Source: an uncultured Acidobacteriota bacterium
GTDB taxonomy: Bacteria > Acidobacteriota > Vicinamibacteria > Vicinamibacterales > CAVVIG01
DNA length: 64,000 nt
Assembly: GCA_963761615.1 (NCBI GenBank)
Contig: CAVXGU010000004.1
Coordinates: forward strand, 607,537-671,536
Direction: 5' to 3'
The notes under the pieces were generated by a model. The model worked only from the letters and a program-made list of their open reading frames with translations. It was not told where the DNA came from and ran no database searches. Both the position numbers and the translations under genes were made by a program. Shown piece by piece: positions 1 to 38,503 of the stretch (within the stretch, counting starts at the first letter, position 1; the number at the start of each line of letters is the position of its first letter).

Positions 1-179
1 ACGACAACACGGCAGGCAACCGGAACAACCCCGATCCGAACCAGTGGGTCGGCTACGGCAACCGGACGGTGGACGAGATGGGCCACGCCTGGGTGAACGT
101 GACCTACCTGAGCGATCAGGAGTACGCCGCCTGGTTGAAGAAGCACTCGAAGACTCCCAACCGGAGCCAGCAGCAGTAA
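1..179 (+). CDS. 3' end (window-truncated) of a secreted heme-c / PHM-like copper monooxygenase-family protein; tandem paralog of 478..1881
   Basis: Frame from nt 3 reads DNTAGNRNNPDPNQWVGYGNRTVDEMGHAWVNVTYLSDQEYAAWLKKHSKTPNRSQQQ, stop TAA 177-179. Manual alignment to 1703..1881 gives 13 mismatches in 179 nt. Confidence 0.85.
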   Translation, partial: DNTAGNRNNPDPNQWVGYGNRTVDEMGHAWVNVTYLSDQEYAAWLKKHSKTPNRSQQQ

Positions 180-196
180 GCCGTTCGGCACACCTT

Positions 197-230
197 GCGA
201 GGCGCCCGCCCACCGTGGCGGGTGCCTCGC
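197..230 (+). terminator. GC-rich hairpin after the truncated paralog (14-bp stem, 6-nt loop); no clear T-tract
   Basis: GCGAGGCGCCCGCC-caccgt-GGCGGGTGCCTCGC with one G-U wobble, 18 nt after the stop codon. Confidence 0.45.
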
Positions 231-345
231 CTCTGTCGCGGCCGACGCGTACTTGCGGTCGCCGCCCTCCGTTCGTAGACACACCGAGACAACTCGCCCG
301 ATCGGAACTCAGCCGCAGGTATTTTGTAAAAGTTGTCACGACGAC

Positions 346-374
346 TTGCGGCCGACGCCGCGCGGCGAGATACT
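346..374 (+). promoter_or_regulatory. Candidate sigma70-type promoter for 478..1881
   Basis: TTGCGG (346-351), 17-nt spacer, GATACT (369-374), beside the only AT-richer stretch of the 298-bp spacer. Confidence 0.3.
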
Positions 375-389
375 GACTCGTGCATACGA

Positions 390-447
390 TTGGAGCACAA
401 ACGGTTGGAGCACAAAGCGATATGTGCTACATTGTTTGAGCTCAAAC
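390..447 (+). promoter_or_regulatory. Operator-like repeats in the 5' leader of 478..1881
   Basis: Direct repeat TTGGAGCACAAA at 390-401 and 405-416 (15-bp period). Perfect 14-bp palindrome GTTTGAGCTCAAAC at 434-447, 30 nt upstream of ATG 478. Confidence 0.35.
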
Positions 448-477
448 TATGTTGGGGAACCCGGCAAGGAGGGTGAC

Positions 478-1881
478 ATGGAAGGTTCGAAGGGGACGGG
501 CTGGAGGGGCATGTGGCAGGCCGGCTTCGTGTCGGCAGCCGCGCTGTGCATGGCCGCGCCAGCCCTGGCGGCGGGCGCGCCGCCGACCGTGACGTTCACC
601 AAGGACGTCGCGCCGATTCTGCAGGCGAAGTGTCAGGACTGCCACCAGCCTGGATCCATCGCACCGATGTCGCTCATGACGTACGAGGAGACCCGTCCGT
701 GGGTCCGGGACATCCGTGAGCGGGTGTCGGAGCGCGAGATGCCGCCCTGGCACATCGACAAGTCGGTGGGCATCCAGAAGTTCAAGAACGACTTCTCGCT
801 GAGCGACGCGCAGATCGCGACGATCGTGAAGTGGGTGGACGAGGGCGCCCCGAAGGGCGACCCGGCCGACATGCCGCCGCCCAAGAAGATGCCGGATCCG
901 AACCAGTGGAAGGGCGTGATCGACGGCCTGGGCCAGCCCGACCTGGTCCTCACGTCGCCGTCGTGGACCGAGCCGCCGGTGCACCAGGACGTCTGGTGGC
1001 GGCCGGAGCAGCCGATTCCCATCACCGAGCCGCGCTGGGTGCGGGCGGTCGAGATCCGGCCCGCGACGACTCCCGGCCGGCGGATCTTCCATCACATCAT
1101 CGCCTACCGCGAGCTGAACGCGGACGAGGCCGACCAGGTGAACACGGGCACGGGCGGCGGGGGCCGGAACCTCGCACTGGTCGATGCCCTGGTCAACCGG
1201 CGCCCGCAGCTGATGGAGTGGGCGATCGGCAAGACCTACGACCTGTACCGCGCGGGCACCGGCAAGCGGATCGAACCGGGCGAGAAGATCTCGTGGGAGA
1301 TGCACATCCACGCCGTCGGCGAGCAGATCACGTCTGCCGCGCAGATTGCGATCTGGTTCTATCCGAAGGGCCAGGAGCCGAGCAAGGAGACCTATCTCGT
1401 CGGGTTCCAGGCGGTCGGCGACCGGACCCCGGGCAGCTCGGGTCTCGACATCCGGCCGAACAGCATCTCGATGTCCGAGGGCTTCACCACGCTCACGAAG
1501 AACGCGATTCTCGAGAACTTCCAGCCGCACATGCACCTGCGGGGGAAGGCGATGGAGCTCGAGGCCATCCTGCCGAACGGCCAGCACCAGGTCGTGAGCT
1601 TCGTGCGGAACTTCAACTTCAACTGGATGACGAACTACGTCTACGCCGACGATGCGGCGCCGGCGTTCCCGAAGGGGACGATCATCCACGTGACCGCCTG
1701 GTACGACAACACGGCGGGGAACCGGAACAACCCCGATCCGAACCAGTGGGTCGGCTACGGCAACCGGACGGTGGACGAGATGGGCCACGCGTGGGTGAAC
1801 GTGACGTATCTCACCGACCAGGAGTACGCCGCCTGGCTGAAGAAACACTCGAAGACTCCCAACCGGAGTCAGCAACAGTAG
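478..1881 (+). CDS. Secreted c-type heme (CxxCH) domain fused to a PHM/DBH-like type-2 copper monooxygenase-like core
   Basis: ATG 478 preceded by AAGGAGGG. Signal-peptide-like N-terminus (..AAALCMAAPALAAG). CQDCH at 631-645 followed by MPPWH. His/Met pattern HH (1090-1095), HIH (1303-1311), HMH (1528-1536), Met in VDEMGH (1780-1782). Stop TAG 1879-1881. Confidence 0.9.
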   Translation: MEGSKGTGWRGMWQAGFVSAAALCMAAPALAAGAPPTVTFTKDVAPILQAKCQDCHQPGSIAPMSLMTYEETRPWVRDIRERVSEREMPPWHIDKSVGIQKFKNDFSLSDAQIATIVKWVDEGAPKGDPADMPPPKKMPDPNQWKGVIDGLGQPDLVLTSPSWTEPPVHQDVWWRPEQPIPITEPRWVRAVEIRPATTPGRRIFHHIIAYRELNADEADQVNTGTGGGGRNLALVDALVNRRPQLMEWAIGKTYDLYRAGTGKRIEPGEKISWEMHIHAVGEQITSAAQIAIWFYPKGQEPSKETYLVGFQAVGDRTPGSSGLDIRPNSISMSEGFTTLTKNAILENFQPHMHLRGKAMELEAILPNGQHQVVSFVRNFNFNWMTNYVYADDAAPAFPKGTIIHVTAWYDNTAGNRNNPDPNQWVGYGNRTVDEMGHAWVNVTYLTDQEYAAWLKKHSKTPNRSQQQ

Positions 1882-1894
1882 TCCAACGACGCGC

Positions 1895-1931
1895 GGGGCG
1901 CCGTCCTGCAGGGCGGCGCCCCGCCCTTTTT
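1895..1931 (+). terminator. Intrinsic terminator between the monooxygenase-like gene and its partner gene
   Basis: GGGGCGCCGTCC-tgca-GGGCGGCGCCCC stem-loop (1895-1922) followed by GCCC and TTTTT (1927-1931). Confidence 0.7.
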
Positions 1932-1953: not shown

Positions 1954-2850
1954 ATGAAGTCGGTGACGTGGGTACTCAGCGCAGCAGCAGTTTCGGCGAT
2001 GATGGTGGCGGCGGTGGCGGTGGTGGGCGCGCAGCAGTCGATCGTGTTGCCCGGTCAGCCGCATGCCGAGTTCGGTGACAGCATCACGCCCGCCTACGAG
2101 GGATGGTTCAACGCCCCCGATGGTTCGCAGAACTTCCTGTTCGGGTACTACAACCGCAACAGCAAACAGATCATCGACATTCCTGTCGGCCCGAACAACA
2201 ACGTCCAGCCCGGCGGGCCCGACCTCGGCCAGCCGACACACTTCCTGACCGGCCGCCAGTGGGGCCTCTTCGTCATCCCCGCGCCGAAGGGCTACACGCT
2301 GCAGGACAAGCCGTTCGTCTGGTCGATCACGGCCAACGGGAAGCAGATCCAGATCCCGACGGACTTCAAGCCGGAGTTCAACGTCGACGTGCTCAACGAC
2401 GCGGAACATAACACGCCGCCGGTGGTCAAGTTCGACATGAAGGGCCAGACGGTCCAGGGACCGATCAACACCTCGTTCGATGAGACGGCGACGGTCGGCA
2501 AGCCGATGGATCTTCCGATCTCGGCGACCGACGACAACATCTACACGAGCGGCAGCAATGCCCCGCGCTCGCGGCTCGGCGATCCCGTCCGGTTCAGATG
2601 GATTCTGTACCGCGGCCCCGCCGACCCGACCTTTGCGAAGTCGACGCCGAAGTTCATGCTCACGAGCGGCGGCGACACCATCGGCAAGCCAGTGTCCGGC
2701 AAGAGCGACACGACCGTCACCTTCCCGCAGGCAGGCGAGTACTGGCTGCAGCTGACCGCGAACGACTACTCGGGGCCCGGCGGCACCGGATCCGGGGCCG
2801 CGGGCTGCTGCTGGACCAACACGCTCGTGAAGGTCAAGGTCGCTCCGTAG
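1954..2850 (+). CDS. Secreted hypothetical protein, conserved partner of the heme/copper enzyme; C-terminal CCW motif
   Basis: ATG 1954 with GGGAAGG upstream. Signal peptide (..VAAVAVVGAQQ). No catalytic motif recognised. The second half looks PKD/Ig-like (GEYWLQLTANDYSG). Ends ..AAGCCWTNTLVKVKVAP. Paralog at 34832..35716. Confidence 0.85.
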   Translation: MKSVTWVLSAAAVSAMMVAAVAVVGAQQSIVLPGQPHAEFGDSITPAYEGWFNAPDGSQNFLFGYYNRNSKQIIDIPVGPNNNVQPGGPDLGQPTHFLTGRQWGLFVIPAPKGYTLQDKPFVWSITANGKQIQIPTDFKPEFNVDVLNDAEHNTPPVVKFDMKGQTVQGPINTSFDETATVGKPMDLPISATDDNIYTSGSNAPRSRLGDPVRFRWILYRGPADPTFAKSTPKFMLTSGGDTIGKPVSGKSDTTVTFPQAGEYWLQLTANDYSGPGGTGSGAAGCCWTNTLVKVKVAP

Positions 2851-2934
2851 CGCACCCCTCCAGGCCACCCGGTCGCGTCCCGCGCGGCCGGGCGGTTGTC
2901 TTCCGATCGCCGGTCGAATAGCATCGCGGGATCC

Positions 2935-27763: not shown

Positions 27764-27779
27764 GTATATAGGCTACCAC

Positions 27780-28080
27780 GGGTGCCGGGCGCCAGGCACC
27801 AGGTGCCAGGTGCGCGTGCCGGGGTGCCAGGTGCCGGGTGCCGGGTGCCGGAGTGCGTGATGCCGGGGTACGTGGTGCCCGGTGCCCGGCGCGTGGTGCG
27901 GGTGCGGGGTGCCCGATGCGGGGTGAGGTGCGCCACCCGGCATCCGGCACGGGGTACGGCACCCCGCACCCTGCACCCGGCATCTGGCACCGGGCACGGC
28001 ACCCCGCACCCTGCACCCGGCACCTGGCACCTGGTGCCCGGCACCCGCACCCGGCACGCGGTGCCTGGCGCCCGGCACCC
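27780..28080. repeat. ~300-bp imperfect palindrome built from GGTGCC(G/A)GG / CCGGCACC units, with 21-nt perfect terminal inverted repeats
   Basis: GGGTGCCGGGCGCCAGGCACC at 27780-27800 is the exact reverse complement of 28060-28080. The left half is G-strand units and the right half is C-strand units; the centre is near 27930. An internal 40-bp direct repeat lies at 27956-27995 / 27996-28035. Confidence 0.85.
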
Positions 28081-28081
28081 G

Positions 28082-33305: not shown

Positions 33306-34730
33306 ATGACTGGTACACGGAAAGGGTGGCGCATCGCCCGGACGAGCGTGGCGGCGCTCGGCGCCATCGCCACGATGGCAGTACCGGCCCTGGCGGCGGA
33401 CGGCGCCGCCGCACAGGTCACGTTCAGCAAGGACATCGCGCCGATCTTCCAGGCGAAATGCCAGGACTGTCATCAGCCGAACTCGATTGCGCCGATGTCG
33501 CTCATCACGTACCAGGAGGCGCGGCCGTGGGCTCGCGACATCCGTGAGCGCGTGGCGGCGCACCAGATGCCGCCCTGGCACATCGACAAGAGCGTCGGGA
33601 TCCAGAAGTTCAAGAACGACATGTCGCTCACCGATGAGCAGGTCGACACGATCGTGCGCTGGGTCGACGGCGGCGCGCCCCAGGGCGATCCGAAGGATAT
33701 CCCGCCGGCCAAGCCGATCACGACGACGAACGAGTGGCGCGGCCAGATGGACGGCTTCGGGCCGCCGGACCTGGTCGTCCGCGCCGACGAGTACATGATG
33801 CCGGCCGCCCATCAGGACGTCTGGTGGCGTCCGATGAGCGAGATTCCCATCAGCGAGCCTCGCTGGGTCAAGATGGTCGAGATCCGGCCGACCAGCCTTC
33901 AGGCCCGCAAGACCCTGCACCACTCGATCGCGTACCTCGTGCTGAACAACGACCCGGACGCCGTGAATACCGGGACCGGGGCGACGGCATCGGCCGGGCC
34001 CGCGGCGCGCGGCGCGGGCATCGACCCCGACGACCTCGTCAACCGCCGCCCGCAGCTCATGGAGTGGGCCATCGGCAAGGGCTACGACCTCTACCGCCCC
34101 GACACCGGCAAGCTGCTGGTCCCGGGCGAGAAGATCTCGTGGGACGAGCACATTCACGCCGCGGGCGAGGACACGTCGACGGGCTCCGAGATCGGCATCT
34201 GGTTCTACCCGAAAGGCCAGGAGCCGCGTCACCGCAGCTACCTCGTGGGCTTCACCGGCATTCGGCGCGCGCCGGGCGCGCCCGCTCTCGACATCCCGCC
34301 GAACTCGATCGCCTACACGGAAGGGTTCACTCTGCTCAGGGAGAACACCCTCATCGAGAACTTCCAGCCGCACTTCCACCTGCGCGGCAAGGCGATGCAG
34401 GTCGAGGCGATCCTGCCCAACGGCACGACGCAGATCGTCAGCTACGTGGGCAACTTCAACTTCAACTGGATGACCAACTACATCTACGCCGACGATGCGG
34501 CGCCGGTGTTCCCGAAGGGGACGATCATCCACGTCACCGCGTGGTACGACAACACCCGCGCGAACAAGAACAACCCCGACCCCGACCAGTGGGTCGGCTA
34601 CGGCGACCGCACCGTGGACGAGATGGCGCACGCGTGGATGAACGTCACGTACCTCTCGGACCAGGAGTACCAGCAGCTGATCGCCGAGCGCAAGGCGAAG
34701 TCCGCGTCGGGATCCCAGCAGCAGCAGTAG
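33306..34730 (+). CDS. Second full-length secreted heme-c / PHM-like copper monooxygenase-like protein (paralog of 478..1881)
   Basis: ATG 33306 after GGGGAGGGGA. Signal peptide. CQDCH (33459-33473), MPPWH, LHHSIAY, EHIHAAG, QPHFHLRGKAM, VDEMAHAW all conserved. Roughly two-thirds identical to 478..1881 by eye. Confidence 0.9.
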   Translation: MTGTRKGWRIARTSVAALGAIATMAVPALAADGAAAQVTFSKDIAPIFQAKCQDCHQPNSIAPMSLITYQEARPWARDIRERVAAHQMPPWHIDKSVGIQKFKNDMSLTDEQVDTIVRWVDGGAPQGDPKDIPPAKPITTTNEWRGQMDGFGPPDLVVRADEYMMPAAHQDVWWRPMSEIPISEPRWVKMVEIRPTSLQARKTLHHSIAYLVLNNDPDAVNTGTGATASAGPAARGAGIDPDDLVNRRPQLMEWAIGKGYDLYRPDTGKLLVPGEKISWDEHIHAAGEDTSTGSEIGIWFYPKGQEPRHRSYLVGFTGIRRAPGAPALDIPPNSIAYTEGFTLLRENTLIENFQPHFHLRGKAMQVEAILPNGTTQIVSYVGNFNFNWMTNYIYADDAAPVFPKGTIIHVTAWYDNTRANKNNPDPDQWVGYGDRTVDEMAHAWMNVTYLSDQEYQQLIAERKAKSASGSQQQQ

Positions 34731-34831: not shown

Positions 34832-35716
34832 ATGAAGTCCTATCGATATCCGGTTCTGTTCCTGTGCGCGGCGGTCGCCGTGGCCGGCGTCGTGCTGTCG
34901 GCGCAGCGGCTGCCCATCGAGCCCCCCAAGGCCTTCGGCACCAGCATCACCGGCGCCTTCGAGGGCTGGTTCGACAACCCGGGCGGCGGCGGGCGCGGCT
35001 TCCTGGTCGGCTATCTCAATCGCAACCTGCAGACGGACATCGACGTCCCGATCGGGCCCAACAACCGCATCGAGCCCGGCGGCCCCGACCAGGGCCAGCC
35101 GACGCACTTCCTGCACGGGCGCCGCTACGGCATGTTCGTCGTGCCCGTGCCGAAGGACTTCACGTCGGCGGACCAGCGGCTGACGTGGACCATCGTGGTG
35201 AACGGCCAGAGCACCGTGATCCCGCTCCGCCTGCACCCCGACTACGTCGTGAGTCCGTTCACCGACGTCGCCGTCGGCAACACGCCGCCCGTCGTCAGGC
35301 TCTCCGAGCACGGGCCGACCAGCCAGGGGCCCGTCGCCGCGATCGCGACCGCGGAGTCGCGGACGACGAGCGTGTCGCAGCCGCTGACCCTCGAGGTCTG
35401 GGCGACCGACGATGCCAAGTACACGAGCGGCACGAACGCGCCGATGCGGAACCCGCCGCCGCCGGTCCGGATGCTCTGGTCGCAGTTCCGCGGAACGGGC
35501 AAGGTGACGTTCGGCGCGGCCGAGCCCACGTTCGAGATCACCAAGGGCGGTCAGGTGGATCAGCCGTTCGAGGGCAAAGCCACGACGACGGCGACATTCA
35601 GCGCGCCGGGCGACTACTTCCTCCACGCCACGGTGAACGACTACTCGGGTGACGGCGGTGGCGGCGAGGTGTGCTGCTGGACGACGGCCATGCTGAAGGT
35701 GACGGTGACTCCGTAG
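34832..35716 (+). CDS. Secreted hypothetical protein, paralog of 1954..2850 (CCW-motif partner)
   Basis: ATG 34832. Signal peptide. Conserved blocks GWF(N/D).P, IGPNN..(Q/E)PGGPD.GQPTHFL, TPPVV, NDYSG, ..EVCCWTTAMLKVTVTP. Confidence 0.85.
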   Translation: MKSYRYPVLFLCAAVAVAGVVLSAQRLPIEPPKAFGTSITGAFEGWFDNPGGGGRGFLVGYLNRNLQTDIDVPIGPNNRIEPGGPDQGQPTHFLHGRRYGMFVVPVPKDFTSADQRLTWTIVVNGQSTVIPLRLHPDYVVSPFTDVAVGNTPPVVRLSEHGPTSQGPVAAIATAESRTTSVSQPLTLEVWATDDAKYTSGTNAPMRNPPPPVRMLWSQFRGTGKVTFGAAEPTFEITKGGQVDQPFEGKATTTATFSAPGDYFLHATVNDYSGDGGGGEVCCWTTAMLKVTVTP

Positions 35717-37292: not shown

Positions 37293-37328
37293 GGTTCTCG
37301 AGGTTCTCGGGGTTCTCGAGGTTCTTCT
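37293..37328 (-). repeat. Array of four 9-nt tandem repeats (GGTTCTCGR on the + strand, i.e. YCGAGAACC on the - strand)
   Basis: GGTTCTCGA GGTTCTCGG GGTTCTCGA GGTTCTTCT at 37293-37328. Confidence 0.8.
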
Positions 37329-37566: not shown

Positions 37567-37606
37567 GATTGGGGCCAGGAATTCTCAGTGGACCCGAAAA
37601 CGCGGC

Positions 37607-37633
37607 GAGAACCCCGAGAACCCTGAGAACCCC
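37607..37633 (+). repeat. Array of three 9-nt tandem repeats GAGAACCCY, inverted relative to 37293..37328
   Basis: GAGAACCCC GAGAACCCT GAGAACCCC at 37607-37633. Confidence 0.8.
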
Positions 37634-37697
37634 GACTGCCACGCTGGCAATTGCGAAGGAGGCCGACGATAATCGCGCCTGGGGCCAGGAGCGTGCG

Positions 37698-38452: not shown

Positions 38453-38503
38453 GAGCACCGAGAACCCCGAGAACCCCGAGCACCCCGAGAACCCCGAGAA
38501 CCC
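38453..38503 (+). repeat. Array of six 9-nt-type tandem repeats GAG(A/C)ACCCC immediately upstream of the USP gene
   Basis: GAGCACC GAGAACCCC GAGAACCCC GAGCACCCC GAGAACCCC GAGAACCC at 38453-38503. Confidence 0.8.

Follow-up and report, generated by a model that had tools for sequence, protein, structure and literature searches.

The window analysed here, a 64,000-nucleotide stretch of contig CAVXGU010000004.1 from an uncultured Acidobacteriota bacterium (positions 607,537 to 671,536, forward strand), carries a gene, here called gene A, whose product joins a c-type heme motif to a two-domain beta-sandwich fold that aligns, ligand for ligand, with the copper enzyme peptidylglycine alpha-hydroxylating monooxygenase (PHM). 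Gene A and its paralogs likely encode Sec-exported periplasmic two-copper monooxygenases of the type of PHM and dopamine beta-hydroxylase (DBH), in which the N-terminal c-heme would feed electrons to one copper site (CuH) and then to the other (CuM). The relationship to PHM and DBH had been proposed in an earlier note on the same DNA, written from its letters and translated reading frames. Coordinates of the features are collected in Table 1.

Structural and sequence relationship of gene A to PHM and DBH

Structural comparison places the larger part of the gene A protein, a core of about 290 residues, with the PHM and DBH enzymes. The AlphaFold2 model, built with 43 homologs, has a predicted local distance difference test score (pLDDT) of 71.5 and a predicted template-modelling score (pTM) of 0.74, and presents an N-terminal domain of three helices, after which come two beta-sandwiches. 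When this model was compared with the PDB by Foldseek, the best 27 matches were all PHM and DBH structures (E 6e-10 to 1e-7, probability 1.00), with human DBH at rank 9, which is what the PHM/DBH-like core of the earlier note predicts. The template-modelling (TM) score normalised to PHM is about 0.6 over some 305 columns, and the matches that come after PHM and DBH, with a TM below 0.3, are jelly rolls of a generic kind.

The same relationship is seen in a profile comparison. A family profile of 60 diverse members, 30-52% identical to gene A, was aligned by hhalign with the core sequence of rat PHM taken from PDB entry 4e4z, and gave a probability of 95.7% and an E-value of 9.5e-9 over 248 columns. 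In this alignment H205 and H206 of gene A pair with H107 and H108 of PHM, and H276 with H172, which completes the CuH set; at CuM, H351 and H353 pair with H242 and H244, and M435 with M314. All six copper ligands are thus in register with the rat enzyme, and the PHM-like order and spacing first noticed in the letters stands. Domain models add to this at the level of the family: Cu2_monoox_C (PF03712) is matched by 28 of the 60 diverse relatives and Cu2_monooxygen (PF01082) by 6 of the 60, at E<=0.01, and among 10 relatives inspected 2 exceed the PF03712 gathering score of 23 (P0238 with 25.0 bits and P0251 with 23.9 bits). Since relatives match the copper Pfam domains in these numbers, the protein of the window falls into a divergent clade, tied to PHM and DBH in sequence and not in fold alone.

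Conservation of the predicted copper ligands

Conservation was counted over 270 homologs (120 close ones and 150 representatives of clusters at 50% identity), with the homologs that cover a given position as the denominator. At the CuH site H205 is kept in 236/239, H206 in 235/238 and H276 in 233/234; at the CuM site H351 and H353 are kept in 234/234 each and M435 in 216/217. Together with the CxxCH motif and M88 of the heme domain, the six copper ligands are 98.7-100% conserved, and the lack of conservation that would have spoken against the earlier note is not seen. The first HxH motif (nt 1303-1311), which had been put forward as a source of candidate ligands, holds up in its first residue: H276 is conserved, whereas H278, the second His of HIH and without counterpart among the PHM ligands, is His in 185 of 234 homologs (79%), as fits PHM, which has a single His (H172) there. 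The difference between 79% at H278 and 98.7-100% at the six ligands argues that selection acts on precisely the ligand set of PHM. The His/Met pattern of gene A, taken at the level of sequence, is far beyond chance, and a chance pattern of histidines was rejected given its conservation across the 270 homologs.

These counts bear on a reading in which the core would be a non-catalytic beta-sandwich of the PHM/PNGase-F kind that binds a ligand or copper, and the protein as a whole an electron-transfer cytochrome or a copper handler. The labels in the sources, which call it merely a cytochrome c family protein, and the lack of a direct Pfam match for the core would both suit such a role. We consider it very improbable, as exactly the six catalytic ligands are near-invariant across clusters 30-50% identical, while their surroundings vary, and as the best structural matches are PHM and DBH enzymes, not PNGase F. 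With the ligands under selection, a non-catalytic PNGase-F-like domain was rejected.

Predicted export signal and heme c domain

Gene A starts with an ATG at position 478, and a GGAGG lies about 6 nt 5' of this codon. The N-terminus of the protein (MEGSKGTGWRGMWQAGFVSAAALCMAAPALA, followed by AG) is Sec-signal-peptide-like, in agreement with the signal peptide of the earlier note, and residues 1-34 have a pLDDT below 50 in the model. Translation of the open reading frame gives 467 residues, with every motif at the nucleotides that had been assigned to it: CQDCH at residues 52-56 (nt 631-645), MPPWH at 88-92, HH at 205-206 (nt 1090-1095), HIH at 276-278 (nt 1303-1311), HMH at 351-353 (nt 1528-1536) and M435 (nt 1780-1782). 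The sole cysteines of the mature protein are the two heme cysteines, and disulfides are absent.

The domain that precedes the CuH domain is predicted to be a mono-heme cytochrome c domain of class I, with the heme attached to C52 and C55 and with H56 and M88 as its axial ligands. It is modelled as three helices (residues 40-53, 69-84 and 110-121). Gene A gives weak Pfam cytochrome c matches (PF13442 with 16.6 bits, below the cut-off of 27); for PF00034, its paralog in the window (paralog B) reaches 24.9 bits, with a gathering score of 21.3, and 46 of the 60 diverse relatives, each scanned singly, match Cytochrome_CBB3 (PF13442) with a best E of 4e-9. The sole PDB match found by sequence and profile search is the heme-c region of hydrazine synthase alpha (E 0.075), over the CxxCH stretch. 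The residues of heme attachment, C52, C55 and H56, are present in 241/241 homologs, so that the CxxCH motif named in the earlier note occurs in every homolog covering that position. M88, probably the distal axial ligand of the heme, is kept in 242/243.

Upstream of gene A we noted a 15-nt direct repeat (ACGATTGGAGCACAA, 2.3 copies, 386..421, + strand), about 60-90 nt 5' of the start codon. It may be an operator site; no equivalent was seen upstream of paralog B.

Paralogs and extent of the family

Paralog B carries CQDCH at residues 52-56, HH at 205-206, HIH at 282-284, HFH at 356-358 and M440, and all the residues that had been said to be conserved in it are present. The copy number proves higher than the earlier note had seen. 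Besides paralog B, the translation of 3..179 of the window matches the C-terminus of gene A in all but one residue, with DNA nearly identical to 1703..1881, and a further protein, P0392, is 89% identical to gene A and encoded on the same 823-kb contig. From these sequences we count at least four copies of the heme-copper gene in the genome. We also collected 82 loci, 80 of them from a scan of species-representative genomes and 2 from metagenome contigs, which are nearly all from Acidobacteriota (Vicinamibacterales, Bryobacteraceae and Terriglobia). Tandem duplication is common among them (L038, L051, L062, L065 and L071). The presence of several diverged paralogs per genome fits a family of enzymes whose substrates vary better than it fits a single housekeeping reaction.

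The family is large. At least 8000 close homologs exist, all labelled "hypothetical protein" or "mono/diheme cytochrome c family protein", and an exhaustive profile search at E<=1e-3 gave 16,450 clusters at 50% identity. The close relatives are mainly from Acidobacteriota, with several paralogs per genome. The bacterial relatives of the PF03712/PF01082 type (P0238 and P0251) have the same cytochrome c N-terminus and bear no functional names; as such distant members pass the Pfam threshold, the architecture is implicitly present in the domain databases. Among distant relatives (P0131, P0144, P0214 and P0251) the heme-copper module is fused to AhpC/TSA and thioredoxin-like domains, to EF-hands, to a 5'-nucleotidase C-terminal domain or to TPR repeats. 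Full-text literature searches for a PHM- or DBH-like enzyme of bacteria, or for its fusion with cytochrome c, returned nothing relevant; the earlier note, too, knew of no characterised bacterial enzyme with this fusion.

The partner gene and the neighbourhood

A gene for a protein of about 295 residues lies directly downstream of the heme-copper gene in 75 of the 82 loci, and of the 7 loci without this adjacent partner, 2 stop at a contig edge. Gene A and paralog B are each followed by such a gene, and the two partners are 47% identical over their BLASTP alignment. The partner of gene A (298 residues, with a signal peptide) is modelled with a pLDDT of 67 as several Ig-like sandwiches in a row. 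None of the 2769 members of its family bears a name, and GQPTH96F, NDYSG and C285-C286-W287 are invariant in the family. Searches for its function gave a weak PKD match in Pfam, nothing in a PDB profile search, and generic Ig-like tandem domains only in Foldseek. We propose that this co-encoded Ig-like protein with its CCW motif probably works with the enzyme, for which it might serve as a subunit, as a carrier of the substrate or as a metallochaperone.

The pairing of the two genes admits another role for gene A, that of a maturase which would introduce a hydroxyl group or a crosslink at a residue of the NDYSG...CCW region of the partner, for instance to form a quinone-like cofactor derived from Cys and Trp. 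MauG and LodB, which mature the TTQ and CTQ enzymes, offer the analogy. Such a role would account for the near one-to-one pairing in 75/82 loci, for a partner without a recognisable catalytic fold, and for the invariant C285-C286-W287 and H96, which lie in or beside loops modelled with low confidence, on an Ig-like scaffold that is unremarkable in other respects. Against it, where two or three oxygenase genes stand in tandem they have a single partner in common, or none within view (window 3..1881; L038, L062 and L071), the oxygenase family looks larger than that of the partner (at least 8000 against 2769 proteins), and nothing direct indicates a modified residue. We judge a maturase of the partner to be quite unlikely.

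No recurrent neighbour besides the partner occurs in more than 13 of the 82 loci. Genes for TonB-dependent-receptor-like proteins (13 loci), PQQ-dehydrogenase-like proteins (10) and NHL/PAL-like propellers (9) stand on either strand and at variable positions, and with this low recurrence and variable placement they were rejected as parts of the system. Within the window, the remaining neighbours, namely MBOAT, GNAT, HAD, a GMC oxidoreductase, a fatty-acid desaturase and a metal ABC transporter, are unrelated.

Animal PAM consists of two halves, PHM and PAL. An NHL beta-propeller gene lies at most 6 kb from the heme-copper gene in 9 of the 82 loci, all of them outside the window: L004 (3960..5072), L017, L019, L024, L034, L040, L046, L059 and L074. 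The propeller is 29% identical over its full length to what we take to be the PAL sequence, and equivalents of Y654, H690, R706 and H786 are kept. It also matches the PAL domain of PAM in the PDB (3fvz, E 7e-23).

Proposed reaction and its alternatives

In the scheme that we infer for metal and heme occupancy, electron-flow direction, monooxygenase chemistry and the role of the partner, the c-heme would accept electrons one at a time from the respiratory pool of the periplasm (soluble cytochromes or dehydrogenases) and pass them to CuH (H205, H206 and H276), in place of the ascorbate or cytochrome b561 of the animal enzymes. From CuH the electrons would reach CuM (H351, H353 and M435), where O2 would be activated and a C-H bond of the bound substrate hydroxylated.

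The nature of this substrate can be narrowed by the residues with which PHM holds its own. The hhalign alignment puts Q349, H437 and W439 in the places of R240, N316 and Y318, which in PHM contact the carboxylate and backbone of the peptidyl-glycine; in the family these residues occur in 171/234 (Q349), 143/215 (H437) and 159/215 (W439) homologs. As the carboxylate-binding residues of PHM are replaced, the substrate is not a glycine-extended peptide. An orthologue of the peptide-amidating PHM was ruled out, since R240, N316 and Y318 are not kept.

The loss of these residues could also be taken to mean that no organic molecule is hydroxylated at all, and that the protein is a heme-copper redox enzyme acting on a small inorganic molecule such as O2, H2O2 or a nitrogen oxide. 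The nearest analogy would then be the copper nitrite reductases with a fused cytochrome c domain. A c-heme that feeds a pair of coppers is equally compatible with such an enzyme, and PHM binds nitrite, azide and CO at CuM, according to the titles of PDB entries. However, the His2Met set of CuM and the whole fold are of the hydroxylase type, the several diverged paralogs per genome, with their variable loops, point to diverse substrates, and a conserved nitrogen-cycle or oxidative-stress neighbour is absent from the 82 loci. An inorganic substrate therefore appears unlikely to us.

Several results weigh against the assignment of gene A as a two-copper monooxygenase that works with its partner. 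Neither gene A nor paralog B matches an oxygenase domain in Pfam at E<=1, the NCBIfam scan of the proteins of the window gave nothing for the oxygenase core, and the C-terminal 340 residues have no match in Pfam and none for the core in sequence and profile searches of the PDB. The profile evidence foreseen in the earlier note is accordingly divided: it is found in the alignment with rat PHM and in the PF03712 and PF01082 matches of relatives, but not as an oxygenase Pfam match of the window protein itself. The model, with its pLDDT of 71.5, is only moderately confident, and the loops 222-241, 312-321 and 427-435 fall below 50, the last of them ending at the ligand M435. The chemistry could differ from that of PHM, judging by the replaced substrate residues. 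Strict co-transcription of gene A and the partner is made uncertain by the strong terminator-like hairpin between them. A strong G+C-rich hairpin stands after each copy of the heme-copper gene (1893..1924 and about 197..230), and the one at 1893..1924, with its run of T, suggests that read-through is attenuated or that the partner is expressed separately. Experimental data on any member of the family are absent from the literature searched.

A bolder and distinctly unlikely proposal takes the monooxygenase and its partner further. The oxygenase and the CCW protein might form a new periplasmic two-protein system in which the enzyme modifies either the partner itself or a substrate that the partner presents (for example, to give a cofactor derived from Cys and Trp), with respiratory electrons passing through the oxygenase's own c-heme; or, with the PAL-like NHL propellers near 9 of the 82 loci, the family might be the counterpart in prokaryotes, or the ancestor, of animal amidation by PHM and PAL, with a different substrate.

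Other features of the window

Table 1. Features of the window discussed in the text, with coordinates in the numbering of the window
Feature	Position	Strand	Basis
Gene A, predicted secreted heme-c/PHM-like two-copper protein, 467 residues	478..1881	+	Open reading frame, motifs, ribosome-binding site, fold, ligand alignment, conservation
Predicted signal peptide of gene A, residues 1-32, ...AAPALA/AG	478..573	+	Basic n-region, hydrophobic core, AxA site; putative cleavage site
Class-I cytochrome c-like domain of gene A, residues ~36-125; C52-Q-D-C55-H56 (nt 631-645), M88 (nt 739-741)	583..852	+	Weak Pfam matches, model helices, conservation
CuH-type N-terminal beta-sandwich of gene A, residues ~165-300; predicted ligands H205, H206 (nt 1090-1095), H276 (nt 1303-1305)	970..1377	+	hhalign, conservation
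CuM-type C-terminal beta-sandwich of gene A, residues ~301-452; predicted ligands H351, H353 (nt 1528-1536), M435 (nt 1780-1782)	1378..1833	+	hhalign, PF03712 matches in relatives, conservation
Partner gene, predicted secreted protein of 298 residues; Ig-like beta-sandwich domains, GQPTH96F, NDYSG, C285-C286-W287	1954..2850	+	Open reading frame, family columns, model
Paralog B, heme-copper protein of 474 residues, 64-65% identical to gene A, all ligands kept	33306..34730	+	Open reading frame, sequence comparison
Partner of paralog B, 294 residues; GQPTHF and CCW motifs	34832..35716	+	Open reading frame, BLASTP
3' end of a further tandem paralog, 58 codons and stop, cut by the window start	3..179	+	Frame-3 translation DNTAGNRNNPDPNQWVGYGNRTVDEMGHAWVNVTYLSDQEYAAWLKKHSKTPNRSQQQ and stop; near-identical DNA
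G+C-rich hairpin after the upstream copy, stem of ~14 bp, GCGAGGCGCCCGCC...GGCGGGTGCCTCGC	197..230	+	Read from the sequence; no T-run, so unflagged by the terminator scan
Terminator-like hairpin between gene A and partner, 14 pairs, 13 of them G-C, then CCTTTTT	1893..1924	+	Terminator scan
Terminator-like hairpin after the partner gene	2868..2892	+	Terminator scan

Repeats were also seen away from the heme-copper genes. Two adjoining heptamer arrays in inverted orientation occupy 27779..28081, with about 21 copies of CGGGTGC followed by about 22 copies of CACCCGG. A 9-nt repeat (CCGAGAACC or its complement) forms three short arrays at 37293..37325, 37606..37635 and 38458..38503, which flank the genes around 37.3-38.5 kb and read PREPREPRE in some frames. 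Searches of the window for tRNA genes and Rfam families found none.

Comparison with known systems

Enzymes of the PHM and DBH type, to which animals owe their amidated peptide hormones and noradrenaline, have been treated as eukaryotic, and a cuproproteome survey of 2020 places PHM and DBM under eukaryotes only (PMC7435645). The family described here would represent them in prokaryotes, as a branch that comprises at least 16,000 clusters at 50% identity; the close relatives of gene A are abundant in soil Acidobacteriota, with several copies per genome, and current annotation does not see the oxygenase core. Should the substrates be organic compounds of the environment or proteins, the family could represent a significant overlooked oxidative activity of soil and a source of hydroxylation biocatalysts that are independent of ascorbate.

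With PHM (a domain of PAM; PDB 1PHM, 1SDW and 4E4Z) gene A has in common the two-domain beta-sandwich fold, at a Foldseek E of about 1e-9, and the layout of the ligands, HH...H for CuH and HxH...M for CuM, with all six in register; in the superfamily the third His of CuH comes some 65 residues after the HH pair, and the Met of CuM some 70 residues after HxH. The sequence identity is about 12-15%. The gene A protein is bacterial and predicted to be periplasmic, is without a fused PAL domain and without disulfides, and has Q349, H437 and W439 in place of R240, N316 and Y318. The N-terminal domain marks a further difference, as gene A has a predicted covalent c-heme where PHM uses free ascorbate. 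Long-range electron transfer into the CuH/CuM pair is still debated for PHM; the fused c-heme, which would replace ascorbate, would offer a self-contained system in which to study it, and would link the respiratory chain directly to periplasmic C-H hydroxylation.

The accessory domain of DBH is a DOMON domain. DBH, tyramine beta-monooxygenase and MOXD1 (PDB 4ZEL) share the catalytic core with gene A and, like it, have an accessory N-terminal domain before the CuH domain (the domain layout of DBH is described in PMC12164859). In gene A this accessory domain is a predicted class-I cytochrome c with a CxxCH motif, not the DOMON beta-sandwich, and a dimerisation domain is absent. The bacterial entries of Pfam PF03712 and PF01082 belong to the same superfamily, whereas the close clade of gene A, with its at least 8000 members, falls below detection by these models.

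A likeness in logic is also found outside the superfamily. The cytochrome domain of cellobiose dehydrogenase feeds LPMOs, and some copper nitrite reductases carry a fused cytochrome c. In both cases, as would be the case in gene A, a heme serves as the one-electron entry to a copper site; their copper domains have unrelated folds, and they are functional analogues only.

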